Assembly (NCBI GenBank): GCA_025839675.1
Contig: CP104013.1
Coordinates: 3,210,001-3,242,000, forward strand
Source of the DNA: Candidatus Lokiarchaeum ossiferum
GTDB lineage: Archaea; Asgardarchaeota; Lokiarchaeia; Sigyniarchaeales; Promethearchaeaceae
Direction of reading: 5' to 3'
Length of the DNA: 32,000 nucleotides
Below, one piece after another: positions 7,155 to 29,247 of this stretch (the stretch's first letter is position 1; each line of letters starts with the position of its first letter). Made by a program: the position numbers and the translations under genes. Under the pieces are notes generated by a model that saw nothing but the letters and a program-made list of their open reading frames with translations, had not been told where the DNA came from and did not search any database.

Positions 7155-10100
7155 CTAAAATTTCATGGTTTGGTTCTTTTTGAAAATGTGACTTTTATAA
7201 TTGATAATTATTATGGACACACCAAGAAGAGCCAAAACAATAATAATTGGCAAAAAGTTGTTTAAGTTTGGAATATCGTAGTAAAGATAAAATAGAAGAA
7301 ATTCACTGGATGATCCTCCATCCGAATCCCGAACGGTTATCCACAATAAGGTAAAATAATTGATCATATCTGTTTGTAATGATTGATCTCTTATATTACC
7401 TGCACGAGAATAATTCAAGCTTTCTGGGAATGAAAAAACACTACGGTGAGAATTATCTTCCGAATTATATTCAAAATTCAATGTTGGAAATTCTTGAGGA
7501 TTTAATAAATTAATAAAACCATTATAAACCAAGATTGGAACTATTGACGCGACCACTGTCAAATCCTCATTCGAATCTTCAAAAGACACTTTTTCTTCAG
7601 TAAATACAGTTAAACTGTAGGGAGTTCCCAACTTTGCTGAAATAGGATAGATTGATCCACCAGATTGTGTTGTAGAAAATTTTACATTGGAAAAAAGAGA
7701 TTTTCCAAAATCTATTTCAGGAATATAATTTTGAACACTGAAAAGAAATCTATCCGGAGAAAAATCAATACATTGAGTAGAAGAATTATCTTGAGTGAAA
7801 CAATAAGCATATCCCTCACCGCCCGTAGTGATTTCGGATGAATTTATTTGAATCTTGTAGAAAAAATCAGAGAGATTATGGATACTTACTCTACCTTTCA
7901 GTTCGGATAGTCTATTTGATGCCAAATATGAATCTGAATAGATTGAAATATATGATTCCAATTGATTGTTTGACGGGCTATTCACATATAAGGCAGGTTT
8001 TGATTCAATAGAGCGATTTATTTCTACATTATCATCTGTAATATTAGAATACCCCTGAATTTGATAAGGATAATAATAGAACTCAAATGAATCTTGGATT
8101 ATTTCGGAATTTTTTGCAATTTTCGTTACAATCCTAAGTGCTTCTTGACTGGTTGCTTCGTTCTCTAAGAAAAGATTCAGATTAAAATGATTATCAATTT
8201 TTTCGATTTGATTTGAAAGAGGACTTTCTGTACCATTTCCATAAATGATTGTGGTGTTAATGCTTTCTCCAGGGATAAATTCATCTTCAAATTTATTAAT
8301 ATAATTATTAAACACGTTGATTGATATATTCAGATAATTTTCTGTTGTATTTTGTCGTTCAAAATCATGAGATATCTCAATTGGATCAAGTGGCATTAAA
8401 TAATCAACCAAATTTAATAATAATTTAGAATGATTTGAGTAATAAGTTGGATCATTATAATATGAATTACCAAAAGTATGGTAATCTCCAAAAGCAACTA
8501 TTTTTCCCTTTCCATTTTCAGTCGAATCATAACATGAAACAACACACTTACCATCTATTGAGGCAAGTGCCTCTGCATTTCCAGATGTTTCAAAAGAATT
8601 TCCGAACAGAAATTTGAAACTATCAATATTTGAAAAGATTGAATGCTGTTGATCTAAGTTCGATACAACGTAAGGTTGAACACTAGCTCCAATTGAATAA
8701 TCTCTAAAATTGAAAATATTTTTTTCTGTTATACTTATCCCCGAGTTAAGAGCAGAAAAAAGAGAGTTGATTGAATCAATACACATTTTATTCGATTTTG
8801 TACCTAAAAATAAAATTGATCCCCCTCTATTAAAGAAGTTTACAATTGTTGTACGTTCAAATTCAGAGTAAGCTAAGATTGGGGTTTGTAAAACGAGCAG
8901 ATCAATATCAGCTAACGAGCGAGGTGATAGAATTTCTGCATCCGAACTTGAAAAATATCCTGAAGTCCAATTTTGCATCTTATAAGAAATACTATAGTTT
9001 TGATGCGATAAATCATACATCATATTATAGAGTTGGATCTGAGAATAGATCGGAGATTCTGAAGGATAAAGGTCATTAAGACCATGAAAACTTTCAAAAT
9101 AGATCTTCTGTTTAGGAATTGCAATAGAGATATTAATTAAAACGCTATCTAATATTCTATTTGAAATTCTATCAGTTATATTTACAGTACCAAGTCTATT
9201 ACCTGCAATGGCAGAATTTTTTATATGTATTTCCAATGGAAAAGATATAATTCCATGATAATCTAGAGAAAATTCATTTTCGGGAGTATTAAATTCAATT
9301 CCGACTAAGTTAGGTAATTCTATGGAAATATGACATTCAGAGCCAGAATAGATGGAAAAATTCATTCCTTGATAATCTCCAGGAAATCGTAATAAATCAA
9401 ATGGAGCATAAGGAATTTGTCTTGGAAAAAGAAGAACTTGATTATTTACACTATCTGCCTGTTTTTTTATATTGCCTAGATAATCCAAAGATTTACTGAC
9501 ATTAATCAACCCAGCACCTTGAGCAGCACCATATCCTTCAGGAGAGGGTCTTTCTATCACTGAAGAGCCCTTGATGAGTGCATTACGAATGGATTCAGGC
9601 GTAGATTCTGGAAAAGCTTCAAGAAGGATTGCAACGGCCCCAGCTACCATAGGACATGCCATGCTTGTACCAGAAAGAGGTATATAACCAAATTGATTTT
9701 TAGAATTAATTAGTGGGTTAGCATAAGTATAATCCAAGGAAAGAATTGAATCTAAAGAATCGGTGGAAATGATATTTACCCCCGGTGCACAAATATCTGG
9801 TCCGATTTGATTTGAAAAGGAAGGACCAACACTACTAAATGAAGCAACATGATTGTTTATATCAGTTGCACCGACAGATATCGAGTATAACCCCGTTCCA
9901 GGAGTTCCTGCAGTATAAAAATTTGGGCCGCTATTTCCCGCGGAAGTAACGACAACAATACCCGATTCAACTGCTTTCTGAATGGCCAATGTTTCAACAT
10001 TCCAAACCTCAGGAATATTCAAGCCAAAACTCATACTAATAATTTGAACTCCTATTTCCATGCACCATTCAATCGCTGCAACTACATCTGATTCTTCTAT

Positions 10101-11003
10101 AGTTCCACTCGAATTTGAGATTTTCGCATTTATAAATTCAACTTCTGGTGCAACTCCACGAAATTTTCCATTTGATGTTATGCCATTACCTCCAGCTATT
10201 CCAGCACAATGAGTTCCATGACCATAGCAATCGTAGGTATAATCTTCAATGGAAACGGCTCTTTCGTAGGTAAAATTCTTGCTCGCAAATATTCGAGATT
10301 GTGAAGGATTTCCATCTTCAAAAAAATCGGGGTGAACAGATATACCAGTATCCATAATTGCCAATTTAATGCCTTTACCAGTATAATTTACATTTGACAT
10401 GCCTATGGCATCCAACCACCAGTTTTCGTCACTAAAGGGAGCATTCCACTTAGAATTATCTGAAAAAAGGTTTTGAAATCTTGACGAGGCTAAATTAGTT
10501 CGATGATCCTGCGATAAAAAACGAATTGATCTAAAATTTTCAATATTATCAATAACATGGGCTAAATATTGGTTTTCAACTTCAATTGAAGTACAAGGGA
10601 GAATATCATAATTATAACCAATCTTAACTTTTGGAAACCAGGTTTTTAATAGTTCTATTCGATTATTTTTTGAAATATGGTCCTGAAAATACACTATAAT
10701 TTTAACTTCAGTACTTAATGGTAAATTGTTTGAAATTTCAATCAGTTTTGAATCAATTTTATTGCTTAAACTAAAGAAAGAAGATAATTTTGATTTCGGC
10801 TCCATGAAAGATGAATCAACATCCTGATTGAATGATTGGAAAATAATATCCTGATTTTTTTTGAATGTATCTAATTCTCTAATTGATATTGCTTTAGAAT
10901 TTCGAAAATTCAATGTGGAAATAGTAGATATGGGTAATAAAAAGAGAATTATGAATGTTACCAATTTTTGTCTTATTCTTCTTGGAATTTGCATTTTCTT
11001 CAC
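7155..11003 (-). CDS. very large membrane-anchored subtilisin-like (S8) serine protease with long uncharacterised C-terminal region
   Basis: 1282 aa. Catalytic Asp (LAIMDTGIS), His (HGTHCAGIAGG), oxyanion Asn (SAGNSGP) and Ser (SGTSMACPMVAG) occur in canonical order. There is an N-terminal signal/anchor (LVTFIILFLLPISTISTL) and a C-terminal TM helix (LPIIIVLALLGVSIIIINY). About 750 aa after the protease domain are rich in N-x-S/T sequons and match no family I recognise. Confidence 0.88.
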   Translation of the reverse strand: MKKMQIPRRIRQKLVTFIILFLLPISTISTLNFRNSKAISIRELDTFKKNQDIIFQSFNQDVDSSFMEPKSKLSSFFSLSNKIDSKLIEISNNLPLSTEVKIIVYFQDHISKNNRIELLKTWFPKVKIGYNYDILPCTSIEVENQYLAHVIDNIENFRSIRFLSQDHRTNLASSRFQNLFSDNSKWNAPFSDENWWLDAIGMSNVNYTGKGIKLAIMDTGISVHPDFFEDGNPSQSRIFASKNFTYERAVSIEDYTYDCYGHGTHCAGIAGGNGITSNGKFRGVAPEVEFINAKISNSSGTIEESDVVAAIEWCMEIGVQIISMSFGLNIPEVWNVETLAIQKAVESGIVVVTSAGNSGPNFYTAGTPGTGLYSISVGATDINNHVASFSSVGPSFSNQIGPDICAPGVNIISTDSLDSILSLDYTYANPLINSKNQFGYIPLSGTSMACPMVAGAVAILLEAFPESTPESIRNALIKGSSVIERPSPEGYGAAQGAGLINVSKSLDYLGNIKKQADSVNNQVLLFPRQIPYAPFDLLRFPGDYQGMNFSIYSGSECHISIELPNLVGIEFNTPENEFSLDYHGIISFPLEIHIKNSAIAGNRLGTVNITDRISNRILDSVLINISIAIPKQKIYFESFHGLNDLYPSESPIYSQIQLYNMMYDLSHQNYSISYKMQNWTSGYFSSSDAEILSPRSLADIDLLVLQTPILAYSEFERTTIVNFFNRGGSILFLGTKSNKMCIDSINSLFSALNSGISITEKNIFNFRDYSIGASVQPYVVSNLDQQHSIFSNIDSFKFLFGNSFETSGNAEALASIDGKCVVSCYDSTENGKGKIVAFGDYHTFGNSYYNDPTYYSNHSKLLLNLVDYLMPLDPIEISHDFERQNTTENYLNISINVFNNYINKFEDEFIPGESINTTIIYGNGTESPLSNQIEKIDNHFNLNLFLENEATSQEALRIVTKIAKNSEIIQDSFEFYYYPYQIQGYSNITDDNVEINRSIESKPALYVNSPSNNQLESYISIYSDSYLASNRLSELKGRVSIHNLSDFFYKIQINSSEITTGGEGYAYCFTQDNSSTQCIDFSPDRFLFSVQNYIPEIDFGKSLFSNVKFSTTQSGGSIYPISAKLGTPYSLTVFTEEKVSFEDSNEDLTVVASIVPILVYNGFINLLNPQEFPTLNFEYNSEDNSHRSVFSFPESLNYSRAGNIRDQSLQTDMINYFTLLWITVRDSDGGSSSEFLLFYLYYDIPNLNNFLPIIIVLALLGVSIIIINYKSHIFKKNQTMKF

Positions 11004-21122: not shown

Positions 21123-21542
21123 ATGAACGATCCCGAATGTTTATTTTGTAAAATTCTTGCTGGTGAGATCCCTAGTTACAAGGTTTTTGAATCAGAATTT
21201 ACCCTTGCTTTTTTAGATATTGCACCTGTAAGTGAAGGCCACACAGTTGTGATTCCTAAAAATCATTATTACAATCTTCTTGATATCCCAGAAAATGAGA
21301 TTCTACCATTTTTTAATGATTTAAAAACAGTTGCAAATCTTATCAAGACAAAACTTGGTTGTGAAGGATTTAATATTGTTCAAAATAATTTCCCTGCGGC
21401 GGGGCAGGTGATTCCTCACTTTCATTTTCACATTTGGCCTCGTATTTCAAGTGATAAACTCTCTCATTTTCAGCGAAATCCTGAAATTGCAAATAAGGAA
21501 GAGATTGAATCAGTTTTTAAGAAATTTACCAATGATTATTAA
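21123..21542 (+). CDS. HIT-family (histidine triad) nucleotide hydrolase/transferase
   Basis: CLFCKILAGEIP N-terminus and the histidine triad HFHFHIWPR. The ATG at 21123 is preferred to the TTG at 21114. Confidence 0.88.
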   Translation: MNDPECLFCKILAGEIPSYKVFESEFTLAFLDIAPVSEGHTVVIPKNHYYNLLDIPENEILPFFNDLKTVANLIKTKLGCEGFNIVQNNFPAAGQVIPHFHFHIWPRISSDKLSHFQRNPEIANKEEIESVFKKFTNDY

Positions 21543-21781
21543 AAACCAATAATCTTATTCTTTCGTAAAAACCAATTTGGAAGTTGAATCACCTGAGTTT
21601 CATCTAAAATTAACGAAAGATCATTTTTTACAATATATTTTGGCACAATTATTCTTCGTTTGAGAGTATCGACATAAATATGAAAAAATTTTGTATCAAT
21701 TTCTTTAATTTTACCATTAATTTGTGAATATTCTTCTCCGTACAATATCATAGTCAATAGCTTATCTTGAACATCCGACAA
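21539..21781 (-). CDS. hypothetical small protein
   Basis: 80 aa ORF, convergent with the HIT gene and overlapping its end by 4 nt. No motif recognised. Confidence 0.35.
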   Translation of the reverse strand: MSDVQDKLLTMILYGEEYSQINGKIKEIDTKFFHIYVDTLKRRIIVPKYIVKNDLSLILDETQVIQLPNWFLRKNKIIGF

Positions 21782-22059
21782 TAAAAAAAGGGAGAGGGTG
21801 ATGACTTTTTAAAATAAAAGGATGACCCTTTCATCCCAGATTTCTTCAATTTAGATATTTCCGAGTGGAATTTGAATAGATTTCAGCGTAACTATAAAAA
21901 GTCATAAATTAAACTTAAACTTAATTTCCAATTTTTTTTCTATCGTCATCAATCTATCCACTGATCGGTATCAGAACCACAAATCGTGTTCTTAAATATG
22001 GAAAGTAATAGGACTTTTTATATTTACTCTAAAAGATTTACATTCTGAGATTTAGAAAA

Positions 22060-24507
22060 TCAGAGAAAATTTTTGATTGAAAGTTGTTTAGGAAGACTTT
22101 GCCCGATAAATGGAAGATTACATTGTAATAACTGCATTTTTATCTCATTGGACAAGACAAATGGAACCATATTAACAAAAGCTCGCAATAAAAGTTCTTT
22201 ATACTTCCCAATATCATAATTCTTACCGCGTTCACGATAAATTTGAACAGGTAAAACTCGATCCATTTTATTAGGGGCACAATCATCTACAATAATAAAC
22301 GAGATTTTTTGTCCTGCTCCTAGCGGTAAACCCGCCATTTGTAAATGCTTGGCTGCTATTGCTTGATAGTTCAACACACTATATTGTTCTGGTCGACGAG
22401 TCAAACGAATATTTACTGCCAGATCATCAATACTAACGGTACCCGATTCTAAATATGCAACATATTTTTTAAACACAGGAATAATAGTCTGTTTCAACAG
22501 CTGATCAAAGTTATGCCTGTAAGAGGAAGAGCCAATAACACGCATTAATTCTTCTTGAAATTTTTTAATTAAAATAGGTGAATCATGCCTTCTAAGCTCT
22601 AAGCCTCGAACTTTTGCTTTTCCTGAAGGTTTTATCCCCCAATAACGATTAAGAGCACCAATTAATGGATCTGCTTTTGTTGGTAAAAAAGAAATAAACT
22701 GGAAGTAATCTTTCGTAGAATCATAAGAAATGGGAATATTTGTTCTTTGTGTGATTTCTTGAGTAATTTTTTGACATTCTGCATGAAAATTCTCCATACT
22801 CATTGATTGAGGGGATTGGACGTAGAGTGAATCAACAATTCCATGTAAGTAGTGAATTCCATGTTTTTCAACTATCTCCATACCATCTATCAGAAATTCT
22901 CGAGCATAAGCACAAACTGCTTGATGAGCCTCAATACGGCCAAATCGAGCATTTCGAAATCCAAGATATCCAAAGCAAACAACTAATATCCATTTCAGCG
23001 CAGTTTGCATTTGATCATATTTCTTTTTTATTCTTCCGTGGCTGGAAATTGCCAATTTTTTGTAATGCATGCGCTTAGTTAACGGGAGACGCAAGGAAAG
23101 AGGCACAACCCCAGTTCGTTTTTTACACGTATAATAAGATAATCCTGGAACTTTGATACCATCTTGCTTACAGCAAGGGCAATTTAAGGTTTCAGGAGAA
23201 ACATTATAAAAAACCATCAAGCTAGGATACATTGACGTGAAATCGAGTTCAGCAACCCGATCAAACATCCCAACTTGAGGGTTTAAAATGTGTCCCCCTC
23301 GATCTGAAAGCAAAAGATTCCATCCATTTCGGAAGATTTCTGCATTCTTTTTTTCCTCTGGAATTAAAATTCCTTGCTTAAAAGCGTGATAAAACTGAAT
23401 TGACTGAAGAGCTCCCCCAATAGTTATACGTGTAAGTCTCTGGAGAGTGATATATGAAATACGCGCGATCTCAACGATTCCATTAATATTTCCATCATCG
23501 AAATGCAAAGATCCCATGATGCTAGAATTAATGTGAAGCCTTCCATTCAAATAGAACTGATTTTTGCTTCGATGGATGATTTGTCCGTAAGAAAAATAGC
23601 TATCAGCACCATTCATCCTGAACCGGGTTGATTTTAAAGGAGTCGAATCCCGAGAAAGTGTGAATGAATTGATAAGATCCAAAAAAGAACAACGAGATAA
23701 CAAGTAAGGAAAAATAGTTTCATCACCCTTATGTGTAAAAATGACATCTGGATCGATACGCTTTATTGCAACTTGCAAGAATTCAAGAGTTTCATATTCT
23801 GAAGATTCTTGAATAATTATTTGTTGAGCACCATGTTCATCCTGGAAAATCATATCACGCGAAAATCTTAGAGAAAGATCGATAGGTGAACTATCGGGAT
23901 CTAATGTTAATTTTATACTATGGAGAGAATCAGAAGTGCTAGTCACAAAATTATGTGATTTCGATTGAATTTCCATCCAAATAATTCGTAATGGAGGAAG
24001 ATCATAGTCAATAGCTTCATTTGAATCAGCTAATTGTATAGAAGAAATAAACAATTGTGAGTTTTTTTTCTTGAAACCAACCCTGACTTTTCCAAATGGA
24101 AACAAATCTGTTGAATAAAAGAAGATCTGTACAAGAGGCAAATCTACATTGAACAGTTCAAAAATGTTCAACCTTCGAATCGTTTCTACTGTTTTTTTAA
24201 ACTTAAAAGGAGATTGAACAACTATTTTTAGACAAGGGGAGGGAATAATTGCTTCAGCTCTAATTCTGCGATCACATATATTAACTTCACAAATATCAGG
24301 ATGTGATCTGATCTGAGCTATTTTTTCTTGATATTTTTGTTCAGAAGATGGAGAAATACTAAAAGGAAAAGAAGCATAGAAAAAAGGATGAAAGGAACGA
24401 ATTCCTGCAATTACATCACCTGAAGGAAGTTTAAGCCAAATCTTAATTCCTTCTTTGTGGATTTGGGCATCCAAAATCCATGCATCATATAATTTTGAAG
24501 ATTTCAT
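22060..24507 (-). CDS. polB: family B DNA polymerase, divergent: exonuclease motifs lost, polymerase motifs B and C altered (PolB2/'inactivated PolB'-like)
   Basis: 815 aa, collinear by eye with archaeal PolB. The N-terminus is WILDAQIHKEG.., and motif A is intact (LDFTSMYPS). Motif B reads KWILVVCFGYLG instead of KxxxNSxYG, and motif C reads LHGIVDSL instead of YxDTDS. The Exo I position reads IIWMEI instead of FDIE, and Exo II reads KGDETIFPYL instead of NGDxFDxPYL. The Exo III region is largely absent. The C-terminal QLSIKNFL is a PIP box. Confidence 0.85.
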   Translation of the reverse strand: MKSSKLYDAWILDAQIHKEGIKIWLKLPSGDVIAGIRSFHPFFYASFPFSISPSSEQKYQEKIAQIRSHPDICEVNICDRRIRAEAIIPSPCLKIVVQSPFKFKKTVETIRRLNIFELFNVDLPLVQIFFYSTDLFPFGKVRVGFKKKNSQLFISSIQLADSNEAIDYDLPPLRIIWMEIQSKSHNFVTSTSDSLHSIKLTLDPDSSPIDLSLRFSRDMIFQDEHGAQQIIIQESSEYETLEFLQVAIKRIDPDVIFTHKGDETIFPYLLSRCSFLDLINSFTLSRDSTPLKSTRFRMNGADSYFSYGQIIHRSKNQFYLNGRLHINSSIMGSLHFDDGNINGIVEIARISYITLQRLTRITIGGALQSIQFYHAFKQGILIPEEKKNAEIFRNGWNLLLSDRGGHILNPQVGMFDRVAELDFTSMYPSLMVFYNVSPETLNCPCCKQDGIKVPGLSYYTCKKRTGVVPLSLRLPLTKRMHYKKLAISSHGRIKKKYDQMQTALKWILVVCFGYLGFRNARFGRIEAHQAVCAYAREFLIDGMEIVEKHGIHYLHGIVDSLYVQSPQSMSMENFHAECQKITQEITQRTNIPISYDSTKDYFQFISFLPTKADPLIGALNRYWGIKPSGKAKVRGLELRRHDSPILIKKFQEELMRVIGSSSYRHNFDQLLKQTIIPVFKKYVAYLESGTVSIDDLAVNIRLTRRPEQYSVLNYQAIAAKHLQMAGLPLGAGQKISFIIVDDCAPNKMDRVLPVQIYRERGKNYDIGKYKELLLRAFVNMVPFVLSNEIKMQLLQCNLPFIGQSLPKQLSIKNFL

Positions 24508-24578
24508 AATGTCACTTCATCTCAAATCATTTTACTTCTTCAAGTAAACAGTAACTTTCTAGTTTTGTTTTTCTTGCT

Positions 24579-25403
24579 TTATCGCATCAATTTTTTTGTA
24601 AAAAATGAATCCAAAGTAGTTGTTTGAGATTTAACACCACCCCGTGATGAATTTAACCTCCCCTTTTTTATTTCAGCAGGTTTCCAAGATCTTTGCACAT
24701 TATATGAATAAAAAGGATGTTGATCTAAAGAATATTCAATAAAACGTGGAAATTCTCGAACTCCAATTATAATATTGCTGAAATGTGAAAGTAATTTTCC
24801 TCCAGCAGGCCGATAATTTGACTTAGAATGACGAGGTCCTGTTAAAACGATGATTGGATTAGAATGCTGGGTAATACGTTTCAATCCCAAAAAAATCCGA
24901 TTTAAATCGTTATATGTTTTGATATTCAACAAATTTATCTGTGAGGATGAAACATTTTGAGAGAGATTTTCTTCGAACATCGATGTTAATCCAGCAACTA
25001 AGATTAAATCAATCTTTTCGTCAGTCTGAAGTATCAACTTCTCCTCCATCAATTCAACCATTTGATTCCAAGTAAAAGCCCGAGCAACGAGGATTTGCTG
25101 GAGAACAAATTCAGGATTAAGACCATTTGATATGGCCATCTTTGAAATCCAATATGGATTGAAACGGTTTTCTCCATCAACATATAATACACGATTCGAA
25201 GCTAATCCACCATCAACAGAAGATTTGAATGAATTCACAGCCGTTTTCATCAATATTACAGAAAGGTGTTGTTTGGCCCCATGTAGAAAATGAACCAGCC
25301 CTGGAAGAAATCCTCCTCCTAACAGTTTATTCAAAAAAATATCACCGCTGGACAATGAATGTTGTTTATTAATTTGGCTTAAATATTCAGATGCAGAAAT
25401 CAT
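24579..25403 (-). CDS. RadA/Rad51-superfamily paralog with degenerate Walker A and Walker B (predicted ATPase-dead)
   Basis: 274 aa. RadA/Rad51 landmarks are LNKLLGGGFLPGLVHFLHG (cf. LDxLLGGGIxxGxITExxG), RVLYVDGENRFNP (cf. YIDTEGTFRPER) and ILVARAFTWNQ (cf. YARAYNxxHQ). The P-loop position reads HGAKQHLS (no GxxGxGKT/S), and the Walker B position reads LILVAGLT (no Asp). Confidence 0.72.
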   Translation of the reverse strand: MISASEYLSQINKQHSLSSGDIFLNKLLGGGFLPGLVHFLHGAKQHLSVILMKTAVNSFKSSVDGGLASNRVLYVDGENRFNPYWISKMAISNGLNPEFVLQQILVARAFTWNQMVELMEEKLILQTDEKIDLILVAGLTSMFEENLSQNVSSSQINLLNIKTYNDLNRIFLGLKRITQHSNPIIVLTGPRHSKSNYRPAGGKLLSHFSNIIIGVREFPRFIEYSLDQHPFYSYNVQRSWKPAEIKKGRLNSSRGGVKSQTTTLDSFFTKKLMR

Positions 25404-25793
25404 ATTGAGGAAACACTATCCAACTATAATCTATGTTATATCATCAAGAAGGGTCTGTGAAATATTAAATATGGTGAGCCGACAGAATTTTTTATTTACT
25501 TAAAATCCGTCAATTTCTCCCCATCAATTTGAAATAGCCTAAAAAACAAATTATTTAGCTACAAACATTCATAGGGGTTCGTTAAATGCAAGAGAGAGAT
25601 AACAATGGAAGTAGAAAAAAATATATGCGATTTCAAAAGAATAAATGTCCGACAAAAAATAGACAAGCCATTTGAGAATTAAAAATTCAATATATTCCAA
25701 ATAGATTAACAAAAAATTATTGTCCATTTTTTTTTTTCCATCAAGTGTTCACAAATCTAAATTTTGAAATCCGAAAGTGCATTGTTCATTCAT

Positions 25794-27236
25794 ATGAAAT
25801 CAAATTTTGCGTTTATTGGTTTTATGGGGACAGGAAAATCGACCGTAGCAAAATTATTCTCTCAACAATTTAACCTAAAATTTGTGGAAATTGATGCAGT
25901 GATTGAAAAAAAGGCAAAAAGAACAATTCCTGAAATTTTTCATGAAGGAGAAGAGATATTTCGGAAATATGAATCAGAAGTTATTATTGAAAGCACAAGT
26001 TTAAGCAATACTTGTATATCTTGCGGCGGTGGAGCCATATTAGATAAAATCAATAGAGAGTATTTATCAAAATCATCCATAATCATATTGTTAGAAGCGA
26101 CACCCTCCACAATTTTTCAACGAATAAAAGAAGAAGGGATTAAAAAGAGACCCCTTCTTAATAAAGAAGATCCGATTAAAGAAATTACAAATTTACTCAT
26201 TTCACGACAAGAATTATATCATGAAGTGGCAGATATAATAATTAGTACAGATGACAAGACTTTAGAACAAATTATCAATGAAATTGTCGAAAATCTTGAA
26301 AAAAATGATGATGAAAACTTGGTTGATGTGGATTTGGAAGTAGCATTTAATCAAATTAAAGAAGAAATCTCTCAAAAAAAAGAGACTAATAAAAAAACGA
26401 TCAATTATTATTGCAAAATCTGTGGAAAAAAGCAGGAAATGAAGAAAACTAAATTTTGTAAGGTTTGCAAAATTCCTGTATGCAAAAAATGTCGGAATGG
26501 TCAATTTTGTATTAATTGTTGGGTAAATTTCAAAGAAGATCCTCGAAAAACAATCAAATTAACTCAAACTTTGGCATTATTTATTCCCTTTATTACTGTT
26601 TTTATTTTGTTAAGTGATGTAATTCGATATTTTATTACAAATATAGTAATTATTTCTATTTTACTCCTGATTTCCTTTGTTGCAAGGTTTCAGATAATTA
26701 AAAATCCAACAAAGTTCATTGAACTGAGCTGGTGGCAAAATACTCAAACTGAAAAATATCAAGAAATTTTGAATCCTTTGACACCTGAACGTTATATAAA
26801 TAAAGAATTGATCCAAAATTATCAAGATCAAAAACAAAAAAAAATCAAGAAACTAAAAAATTGGATTGAAATGGGTGATCAATTAGCAAATATTCCAATC
26901 CCAGCCCATTATGAAGATAAAAAACTGCATAAGGGAGATATTTCAGAATATTCAGAAGCTGAATTAGTTTCGACAATTGAAAATCTTGACAAAAATGCAG
27001 ATAGAAAGAAATGGGAATATTTGTTAATTGACAAACCTTGTCCAAAGTGCCAATCTATTATTAAATTTGCAGATTTTTGTATTGAGTGTAATGAGAGATA
27101 TTGCCCTAAATGTGGAGAAAATTCCGATTCGTATTCTTTGAAATGTATTTGTGGATATAATTTCGAACCACTCCCTAGCGAGTTCATGAAATGGACTAAT
27201 ACAAATGAAGTTTTATTCCAAAAAAAAAAAGATTGA
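25794..27236 (+). CDS. AroK-type (P-loop) shikimate kinase domain fused to an 8-Cys zinc module, two TM helices and a C-terminal double zinc ribbon
   Basis: The N-terminal roughly 170 aa carry Walker A GFMGTGKST, EID, GEEIFRKYE, CGGGA and KKRPLL, all in the order of AroK/AroL shikimate kinases. Next comes CKICG-x11-CKVC-x4-CKKC-x5-CINC, then hydrophobic segments LALFIPFITVFILL and IVIISILLLISFVA. The C-terminus has CPKC-x9-CIEC-x4-CPKC-x10-CIC. The ATG at 25794 is preferred to the TTG at 25764. Confidence 0.75.
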   Translation: MKSNFAFIGFMGTGKSTVAKLFSQQFNLKFVEIDAVIEKKAKRTIPEIFHEGEEIFRKYESEVIIESTSLSNTCISCGGGAILDKINREYLSKSSIIILLEATPSTIFQRIKEEGIKKRPLLNKEDPIKEITNLLISRQELYHEVADIIISTDDKTLEQIINEIVENLEKNDDENLVDVDLEVAFNQIKEEISQKKETNKKTINYYCKICGKKQEMKKTKFCKVCKIPVCKKCRNGQFCINCWVNFKEDPRKTIKLTQTLALFIPFITVFILLSDVIRYFITNIVIISILLLISFVARFQIIKNPTKFIELSWWQNTQTEKYQEILNPLTPERYINKELIQNYQDQKQKKIKKLKNWIEMGDQLANIPIPAHYEDKKLHKGDISEYSEAELVSTIENLDKNADRKKWEYLLIDKPCPKCQSIIKFADFCIECNERYCPKCGENSDSYSLKCICGYNFEPLPSEFMKWTNTNEVLFQKKKD

Positions 27237-27334: not shown

Positions 27335-27760
27335 GTGAAGAATTTGTCAGAAATACAACTTGATAAAGATTTGCAAATAGATTTACATCGAATGTTGGAG
27401 TTACTTGAAAGTTCGACGGATTTAGAGGGAACGGCTTTAGTAACAAAAACAGGCCTTAGAATAGCGAGTTCTACTCACGCTTCTACAGATGTTGATCAAC
27501 ACAGTGCAAGTCCAGCAACTTTAGTCTCTTTGGCAAATAAAGTATCTCAAGGATTGGATTTTGGAAATTTAAAACAGTTAGTAGTAACGGGCGAAAATGG
27601 CTACACAATAATTACAACTACTGAAGAAAGCAAATTTATGTTACTTTCCCATAGCAAACGCGCATCTACATTGGGATATTACTTTCATCGCTTGTCAAAA
27701 GCTTTTGGAAAATTAGTTGCCCTCTTGGTTGATATCCAAATCGGGGAAGCGACTTATTAA
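27335..27760 (+). CDS. Roadblock/LC7 (MglB-like) domain protein
   Basis: 141 aa. The pattern LLESSTDLEGTALVTKTGLRIASS...LKQLVVTGENGYTIITT matches the Roadblock/LC7 alpha-beta fold consensus. The track start is GTG at 27335, and the start is uncertain. Confidence 0.72.
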   Translation: MKNLSEIQLDKDLQIDLHRMLELLESSTDLEGTALVTKTGLRIASSTHASTDVDQHSASPATLVSLANKVSQGLDFGNLKQLVVTGENGYTIITTTEESKFMLLSHSKRASTLGYYFHRLSKAFGKLVALLVDIQIGEATY

Positions 27761-27780: not shown

Positions 27781-29247
27781 TTATTGAGGAATTATTTTTT
27801 CGTAGGATTTTGAATAATCCAGTTTGATATCTTTAAATAATTGTAATTCTACTTCATTTTGACCGGATGAAAGCAAATTTAGTTGAGTTTTATTTACTCT
27901 AACTTCAACATTACCTTTTTGACCAAATGAAGAGACAATTTTATCATATGGAGGTTCAGCATTCAAATTGAGAATGCTTTGAGCACCTTTCAAAGATGCA
28001 GCTAATCCTTCAACGATTACTGTATTTGGAGAGTAATTTAGTTTAGTTACAATTCCATGCTTCATTTTAATCTTATTCAATAGAGGGGGATTAAAATGCA
28101 CTTTTTTGATTTTTGCTGATCCCATAATTCTCAGAGCTTTAGGTGATAAATCTAATCTACTCAGAAGAAAAACATCAGAGTCTCGAATATATTCTTCAGT
28201 AGCCAACCATAAAATGGCACGATACTTCTTTTTTGATCGCGGAGGGTGGAAAGCCACGGGATAGCGTTGTCCTGATTTTTGAAGTGTATAAAAAGGAAAA
28301 ATTCGAGCATTCAATGCCATCATGCCATGATTTACATTTATGGATTGACCAAATTTGCACCCCAATTGAAATAATGCTAATTCTTCAACTTGAATCTCAA
28401 AAATTTGAGCTTTCTTATATTTATCACCTTCATTTGTAGCAAAACATCCTCGATATATTCGATTTGAATCAATTTGAGTAACAGCAATTCCACATCGATC
28501 TCCCGCAACAACAAATTGGGCATTTTCTTTCCATTTTTGAATGGATTTGATGCGTGTAGATATTTTTGGAGGTAAAATTAGTAATTCATCACCAATCTTA
28601 ACTTGACCACTAATTGCAGTTCCAGTTAAAATGGTTCCGAATCCTTTTTTGTTAAAATGATGATCAAATAGAAAATGCAGAGGAGTTTCCGAAACACGCT
28701 TAATTTTCATGCTTTTAATTGTTGTTAATAAATAATCTTTAACTACACCAAATCCCCTATTTTGTTTGGCCGAAACATTAAATGTCTTATATTGTGTTTT
28801 ATATCGAGTTGCTTGCATAATTTGCTTCATTTGACCTTCCAAGATAGAAATCTGCTCAGGATTAACCATTTCAATTTTATTAAATAGAACGACAACTTCC
28901 TTAATTTCGAGAATATCCAAAATTAATAAATGTTCACCAGTTTGAACTTGAGGTCCTTGAACTGCATCCACGACAAGAATTGCAAGATCAATGATATTTG
29001 CACAACTAACTACACTACGAATTAAATCTGCATGACCTGGAGCATCCACCAAAGTAATCATATACTCATCAAGAGGAAAAAAAGTGAAACCCAAATCAAT
29101 GGTGATTCCGCGTTTTTTAGATTGAGGATGTTTATCCAAACCCGCGGTTGAGACAACTTCACTTAAGCATCTGGCGATCGCAGTTTTTCCGGCATCTATA
29201 TGTCCTAGAAGACCGATGTGTATAGGAGTGTACTCATTTCTTGTCAT
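27781..29247 (-). CDS. SelB-type translational GTPase (selenocysteine-specific elongation factor or SelB-like paralog)
   Basis: 488 aa. G1 is GHIDAGKT and G3 is DAPGH. The SelB-like switch region is STAGLDKHPQSKKRGITIDLGF, followed by GPQVQTGEHLLIL. G4 reads NKIE. Three beta-barrel-sized domains follow the GTPase domain. Length and pattern resemble archaeal SelB rather than EF1A or aIF2-gamma. Confidence 0.75.
   Translation of the reverse strand: MTRNEYTPIHIGLLGHIDAGKTAIARCLSEVVSTAGLDKHPQSKKRGITIDLGFTFFPLDEYMITLVDAPGHADLIRSVVSCANIIDLAILVVDAVQGPQVQTGEHLLILDILEIKEVVVLFNKIEMVNPEQISILEGQMKQIMQATRYKTQYKTFNVSAKQNRGFGVVKDYLLTTIKSMKIKRVSETPLHFLFDHHFNKKGFGTILTGTAISGQVKIGDELLILPPKISTRIKSIQKWKENAQFVVAGDRCGIAVTQIDSNRIYRGCFATNEGDKYKKAQIFEIQVEELALFQLGCKFGQSINVNHGMMALNARIFPFYTLQKSGQRYPVAFHPPRSKKKYRAILWLATEEYIRDSDVFLLSRLDLSPKALRIMGSAKIKKVHFNPPLLNKIKMKHGIVTKLNYSPNTVIVEGLAASLKGAQSILNLNAEPPYDKIVSSFGQKGNVEVRVNKTQLNLLSSGQNEVELQLFKDIKLDYSKSYEKIIPQ

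Follow-up and report, generated by a model that had tools for sequence, protein, structure and literature searches.

The gene at 24579..25403 (-) of the window (the whole analyzed stretch of 32,000 nucleotides of Candidatus Lokiarchaeum ossiferum DNA) most probably encodes iRadA, the catalytically dead RadA-fold subunit of a PolB2 (Dpo2-type) translesion/mutagenic polymerase complex. It does not constitute a new kind of paralog but is a member of the already known iRadA family, with a locally split operon. This assignment is based on operon context, motifs, tree position, and the Lokiarchaeota sequences included in the study of Timinskas, Timinskas and Venclovas (2025) (PMC11791011). The sequence-only reading of this DNA had stated that all characterised archaeal RadA paralogs retain a P-loop, which is wrong, as Walker-less ones have been on record since 2013-2014 (PMC4104785). 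Makarova et al. (2014) reported linkage of PolB2/Dpo2 genes with arCOG07300 and with genes of the RadA family in which ATP-binding residues have been substituted, the Walker-less RadA paralogs of PolB2 operons being arCOG07763, arCOG04294, and arCOG08101 (PMC4104785). These partners were later renamed PPB2 and iRadA, and a PolB2-iRadA-PPB2x3 heteropentamer, the "mutasome," was modelled (PMC11791011). According to a 2026 review, the PolB2-iRadA-PPB2 complex, an AlphaFold model, still awaits experimental verification (PMC13324097). In a study of Asgard RadA phylogeny, highly divergent sequences were set aside and Walker-less paralogs are unmentioned (PMC12722695).

The assignment leaves the published basic picture of the PolB2 mutasome unchanged. 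With it, a component of the PolB2 machinery for tolerating damage is cleanly annotated in an Asgard archaeon available in culture, and the Asgard lineage serves reasoning on the origin of eukaryotic replication and repair. For specialists, it adds that putative PCNA motifs are usual on both PolB2 and iRadA in Asgard archaea and that the three genes may be scattered over the chromosome.

A RadA/Rad51 core without an ATP site

The coding sequence (274 aa, stop included in the coordinates) encodes a RadA/Rad51 core without an ATP site, and the original observation was confirmed in all parts. The four RadA landmark strings quoted in the sequence-only reading are all present in the minus-strand translation in the claimed order, and the N-terminal HhH domain is absent, the protein starting at the RadA linker position (residue 97-99 of the Pyrococcus furiosus [Pf] protein). 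The Pfam Rad51 model (PF08423) matched with an E value of 3.3e-14 and 53 bits against a cut-off of 22, and P. furiosus Rad51/RadA (1pzn) was aligned to residues 3-216 with an E value of 1.2e-14, the first aligned Pf Rad51 residue being 99. With an AlphaFold2 model based on 16 members of the family (mean pLDDT, 79; pTM, 0.77) as query, Foldseek retrieved RAD51, RadA, and DMC1 structures at E values of about 1e-16 to 1e-17 (best, 1.6e-17) and TM scores of ~0.7 (0.73). Thus, both the profile and the structure search that had been suggested as a check confirmed the RadA/Rad51 fold, with RadA, Rad51, and DMC1 as best matches. The NCBIfam models of these three proteins nevertheless matched far under their family cut-offs. 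Canonical RadA was rejected as an identity, with 61 bits against a cut-off of 259 (NF003301) and 56 bits against 361 (TIGR02236) and with the HhH domain and Walker A/B absent; RadB was rejected with 38 bits against 172 (TIGR02237) and no Walker A. Membership in aRadC was dismissed on scores, motifs, and tree position.

The degenerate Walker A position comprises residues 41-48 (25260..25283 (-)), which read HGAKQHLS as previously pointed out and contain no GK[ST]. In the alignment to 1pzn, the P-loop GEFGSGKT faces GAKQHLSV (residues 42-49) without Gly-Lys-Thr, and in the family alignment the loop falls one residue short of a P-loop. The AlphaFold2 model shows the former P-loop as a turn of 2-3 residues leading from strand 37-41 to helix 44-57. 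The proposed loss of the nucleotide pocket was therefore seen in the alignments and in the model alike. Loss of the Walker B Asp was likewise borne out: in the strand of residues 132-140 (24984..25010 (-)), Ala136 replaces the Asp in both the 1pzn and the family alignments, and most family members carry A, S, G, or T here. In addition, loop L2 is 6 residues shorter, and the N-Q motif that precedes it in RadA has lost its Gln.

A non-canonical P-loop that binds ATP or another ligand, and with it a cryptic nucleotide-binding or enzymatic site, is very unlikely in view of these losses and of the absence of [AG]x4GK[ST] at the P-loop position from all of about 100 iRadA family representatives. This holds even though the RadA D-T-E motif persists as D-G-E with its Glu retained (Asn79 being invariant and Asp76 nearly so), His207 of a P-x-G-G-x-x-x-x-H motif is invariant, and an Asp is found at the Walker B position in one subclade (P0011, P0014, and P0019). 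One representative (P0034) has a chance [AG]x4GK[ST] match at residue 61, away from the P-loop position. An operon-linked iRadA open reading frame (ORF) of another locus (L134) matched a loose Walker A pattern that was scored irrespective of P-loop position. The non-enzymatic adaptor role proposed from the sequence is in keeping with both the evidence and the published model, where iRadA is a non-catalytic subunit of the PolB2 complex (PMC11791011). Its contribution would consist of binding surfaces, not of ATP hydrolysis or strand exchange.

Spread and conservation of the Walker-less family

A word-indexed search returned 25 relatives with 33-84% identity, some labelled Promethearchaeota, and a P-loop was present in 0 of the 25. 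When 1.8 billion representatives were searched exhaustively with a profile, 59 clusters were obtained at E<1e-30. Past this threshold, the matches tailed off gradually, and Walker-bearing RadA/Rad51 proteins first appeared at about E 1e-21; the distant representatives carried the taxon labels Sigynarchaeota and Promethearchaeota only. The suggested survey of the Walker-less form thus showed it to be widespread in Asgard archaea and mostly linked to PPB2 and PolB2. Among Lokiarchaeia, iRadA was found in all families sampled. One locus from the same genus (L011) holds the other paralog type and not the ortholog.

The phylogeny that had been called for was built from 145 RadA-family sequences by a quick maximum-likelihood search without bootstraps. 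Walker-less proteins (101 rows, including the query) and Walker-bearing proteins (44 rows) were placed on opposite sides of one branch, for which support was moderate (SH-aLRT 84-86). The Walker-bearing side includes the two RadAs, the RadA-like paralog, and the RadB-like paralog of the host genome, and a PIP-like (PCNA-interacting) tail was present in 77 of the 101 Walker-less rows. A separate "orphan" clade for copies unlinked to PolB (G135, G128, and G126) was considered and rejected, as each is the sole iRadA of its genome and PolB2 and PPB2 are encoded elsewhere in that genome.

The host genome is a single contig of 6,035,313 bp with six Rad51-family genes, two of them Walker-less. Two are canonical RadAs, and the RadB-like (L006) and RadA-like paralogs keep Walker A. 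The second Walker-less, iRadA-type gene (G000:C1:5741001-5741711 (+), corresponding to L005:1453-2163 and L048) encodes 236 aa with 36% identity to the query. Its match to P0022, the nearest relative, ends at residue 218. The gene lacks the final beta strands and the PIP tail, of which no remnant was found in the other frames, and neither PolB2 nor PPB2 lies within 8 kb. This second gene is possibly a truncated, decaying paralog.

Whether the gene in the window might itself be a decaying, non-functional remnant of a RadA duplication was weighed against its conservation. The catalytic motifs are lost and the second copy in the host genome is C-terminally truncated, as such a remnant would suggest; the frame, however, is intact, 27 columns are invariant over 16 iRadA sequences, and the family is held together at 33 to 84% identity. 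The dN/dS ratio against three other loci (L037, L008, and L012) was 0.29-0.31, a rough value only, since dS is saturated (1.4-2.1), which even so speaks against decay. Together with the presence in all sampled Lokiarchaeial families and in RNA libraries, this conservation excludes pseudogene decay, and we consider a remnant hardly conceivable.

The PolB2 neighbour and a fluid operon

A family B polymerase gene (22060..24507 (-), 815 aa) lies directly downstream of iRadA on the same strand. The two are separated by a spacer of 71 nt (24508..24578 (-)) that contains no PPB2 gene and no evident terminator. PolB2 is a family B polymerase in which the first Asp of DxD is replaced and the exonuclease is dead; here it was judged by motif C, which reads IVD instead of DxD. 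Adjacency and the IVD motif thus place the gene beside PolB2, as is characteristic of iRadA. The best NCBIfam match of the polymerase was the short type B polymerase model NF004416, and it is one of two family B polymerases in the host genome. Its loop with the conserved Asp-Arg motif closely resembles that of the Lokiarchaeota PolB2 modelled previously (PMC11791011). The supplement of that paper contains Lokiarchaeota operons of several arrangement types and a Lokiarchaeota PolB2 with the same IVD motif. Of the sequence-only reading, the adaptor inference stands, whereas the link to the directly downstream PolB2 had been missed.

Four metatranscriptome libraries from one study contain the iRadA-PolB2 stretch. 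Single RNA contigs span iRadA, PolB2, and the 71-nt spacer (21766-25415 in X1 and 21727-25424 in X2), and the contigs of all four runs end at 25415-25424, that is, 12-21 nt upstream of the iRadA ATG, which speaks against an overlooked upstream extension of the ORF. The 400-nt spacer toward the divergent gene is hardly covered by RNA contigs. A TATA-like hexamer at 25435..25440 (-), about 32-37 nt upstream of the ATG, is a candidate promoter of the unit. These data are consistent with one iRadA-PolB2 transcription unit, although contigs from one study cannot prove a single transcript.

Several further genes were observed around the pair. Downstream of PolB2, after 278 nt and in the same orientation, follows an 80-aa ORF without a Pfam match (21539..21781 (-)), at whose first codons the iRadA-PolB2 RNA contig ends. 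In G142, the other genome with a PPB2-less iRadA-PolB2 operon, a 76-aa ORF with 30% identity to it (E 4e-10) occupies the corresponding position (L037:5107-5337). The 80-aa ORF also has a weak paralog at G000:C1:3056222-3056431; no homologue was found beside PolB2 in the remaining loci. The divergent neighbour (25764..27236 (+)) combines a shikimate kinase domain (Pfam SKI, E 4e-43) with a long Cys-rich, hydrophobic C-terminal half; at its position, G142 has a separate 170-aa kinase and a 333-aa ORF (L037:9113-9625 and 9632-10633). A Roadblock/LC7 protein (27335..27760 (+)) adjoins a SelB-like GTPase (27781..29247 (-); aSelB domain III, E 7e-6), and in G142 and G132, synteny of these two genes with the iRadA-PolB2 locus is conserved.

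Comparison of loci placed the arrangement in context. Among 16 Lokiarchaeial loci retrieved around relatives of the query, 12 have a PolB2 ortholog (32-55% identity) on the same strand, 0.1-7 kb away, and in 10 of those 12 an MGRT-type PPB2 ORF of ~90 aa immediately precedes PolB2. A wider set comprised the best 80 PPB2 loci retrieved with a six-row PPB2 alignment, all of them Asgard except for one labelled Nitrosopumilaceae and some labelled "uncultured archaeon." The order iRadA-PPB2-PolB2 on one strand was found in 52 of these loci (iRadA relatives being taken at E<1e-25 against the family profile), and PPB2-PolB2-iRadA, with iRadA convergent after PolB2, was found in 3. The distance from PPB2 to PolB2 was always -28 to +20 nt, and iRadA lay 34 to about 5000 nt away.

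A search of the window for PPB2 found no such gene between iRadA and PolB2 or to either side of them. Unlike in the published iRadA operon, the PPB2 of the host genome that carries the MGRT arm (G000:C1:2278767-2279045 (+), L055:2768-3046; HMM E 2.4e-30) is unlinked, about 0.95 Mb from iRadA-PolB2. A second copy (G000:C1:1549001-1549288 (+), L056:3038-3289) lacks MGRT and the H-A-D-A-G-S motif, in line with the published note that, where PPB2 is duplicated, the arm persists in just one copy (PMC11791011). PPB2 (arCOG07300, about 90 aa with an N-terminal MGRT arm), the other usual partner of iRadA, was therefore found in the host genome and in orthologous operons, and we treat the PPB2-less iRadA-PolB2 locus as an atypical arrangement and not as an argument against iRadA.

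Gene order of iRadA, PPB2, and PolB2 is fluid within the family of the host genome. The three-gene operon is intact in one relative (L044), whereas in the host genome and in G142 iRadA abuts PolB2 with no PPB2 in the locus. In the closed genome G135:C1 of the same family, iRadA (3297704-3298456), PolB2 (3001830-4193), and PPB2 (4178575-4178829) are hundreds of kilobases apart; coregulation therefore cannot everywhere depend on an operon. In G128 and G129, iRadA adjoins PPB2, and PolB2 is located 20 kb off or on another contig. All genomes checked that contain iRadA also contain PolB2 and PPB2.

Predicted clamp-binding tails, the N-terminal motif, and known systems

A C-terminal clamp-binding motif is frequent, though not obligatory, in iRadA, and one is recognizable here in the sequence. 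The PIP-like motif comprises residues 260-268 (24600..24626 (-)) and is followed by a basic tail. Its Leu and two Phe (L-x-x-F-F) are in register, the Gln stands one residue early, and Asp265 is invariant in the family. The linker before it (246-264) has low pLDDT in the model. A PIP-like C terminus was present in 55 of 55 operon-linked Asgard iRadAs, mostly with Asn at the Gln position. PolB2 itself ends in a canonical PIP box, formed by its last 8 residues directly before the stop (22063..22086 (-)); in the 55 Asgard operons with iRadA, the PolB2 C terminus is a strict PIP box in 46 and a loose one in 3 more. Many iRadAs have been reported to end in a clamp-binding motif, rarely both iRadA and PolB2 of the same organism (PMC11791011). 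In contrast to this overall rarity, predicted clamp motifs occur on both proteins in 46-49 of the 55 Asgard operons, and two putative clamp motifs per PolB2-iRadA complex are the rule in the sampled set. A Lokiarchaeota PCNA:iRadA pair is among the models in the supplement of the same paper.

In the published model, a PolB2 loop imitating the RadA oligomerisation motif binds iRadA (PMC11791011). Following that model, the loop would plug into the acceptor pocket of iRadA, and one N-terminal arm of the PPB2 trimer would be inserted between PolB2 and iRadA, near DNA. The flexible iRadA tail and the PolB2 tail may then hold the complex on PCNA where a primer end has stalled, and there PolB2 would extend mispaired or damaged termini.

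The N terminus of the protein retains a further RadA feature. Residues 1-4 (25392..25403 (-)) correspond in position and spacing to the RadA polymerisation motif (F-x-x-A), with the initiator Met at the Phe position. They align with F97..A100 of Pf Rad51 in the 1pzn alignment, and the motif starts 19 residues before the Gly of Ser-Ser-Gly, the same distance as from F97 to G116 in Pf Rad51. Among 78 distinct iRadA N termini, position -19 holds Phe, Met, Tyr, Leu, Ile, or Val in 73 cases, Ser or Thr stands two positions later in 68, and position -16 is Gly or Ala in 76. The main text of PMC11791011 does not discuss a polymerisation-type motif at the iRadA N terminus; PolB2 was tested against RadA in that study, as a control that scored about 0.3 compared with interface scores of 0.8-0.9 for the published complex, and we found no iRadA-RadA test in it.

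Such a motif could also belong to a free-standing recombination mediator or filament cap that acts independently of PolB2, docks on RadA, and regulates its filaments, resembling eukaryotic Rad51-paralog and Shu-type complexes. The [FYML]-x-[ST]-[GA] motif at RadA spacing in 73-76 of the 78 N termini would fit this role, as would the two canonical RadAs of the host genome as possible targets, the dispersed genes of G135, and the second, PolB2-unlinked copy in the host genome. However, linkage of iRadA to PolB2/PPB2 is the dominant pattern, PolB2 and PPB2 co-occur with iRadA in every genome checked, and the PCNA-type tail points to work at replication forks or primer ends and not to filament control; a free-standing mediator is therefore improbable. 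The eukaryotic mediator complexes that the sequence-only reading had offered as an analogue are also not the nearest one; the nearest is found in translesion polymerases that have a subunit of recombinase fold, such as RecA in Pol V.

For the PolB2 subunit that we favour, the retained N-terminal motif hints at a connection of the mutasome with RadA filaments that can be tested. Judged from these motifs, Asgard iRadA might tentatively be pictured as a three-way bridge that offers its pocket to the PolB2 loop, its tail to PCNA, and its N-terminal motif to the end of a RadA filament, a reading that we regard as rather unlikely. If it were true, the iRadA and PolB2 tails would give the complex two holds on one PCNA ring, and PolB2 could be recruited to recombination intermediates or be activated by RadA filaments as Pol V is by RecA filaments.

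Compared with known systems, the protein corresponds most directly to the described iRadAs: the RadA core without the N-terminal domain, the replaced ATPase residues, and the C-terminal clamp-binding motif are the same, as is the linkage to a PolB2 with an I-x-D motif C, and the orthologs are arranged as iRadA-PPB2-PolB2 (PMC4104785, PMC11791011). RadB, aRadC, and the Sulfolobus Ral/Rad55-like proteins are also short RadA cores without HhH but, unlike iRadA, have kept Walker A. The Csm2-Psy3 proteins of the Shu complex and SWSAP1-type proteins have a Rad51 fold, have lost ATPase motifs, and serve a non-enzymatic role in damage tolerance. Unlike iRadA, these paralogs work on filaments of Rad51 and not as subunits of a polymerase. 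A specific sequence relation of iRadA to eukaryotic Walker-less Rad51 paralogs was not seen, the best matches being RadA, Rad51, and DMC1. ImuA, the RecA-related accessory protein of the bacterial ImuA-ImuB-DnaE2 cassette, is encoded together with an error-prone polymerase; the likeness to iRadA is one of description, and the polymerase family and the partners are different. RecA in Pol V is likewise a recombinase-fold accessory subunit of a damage-inducible mutagenic polymerase, and in both, according to the published model, the polymerase binds this subunit by imitating the motif through which the recombinase itself oligomerises. RecA, however, is an active housekeeping recombinase that binds ATP, whereas iRadA is a dedicated paralog without an ATP site; Pol V belongs to family Y and PolB2 to family B, and in the PolB2 system the clamp motif can sit on iRadA.
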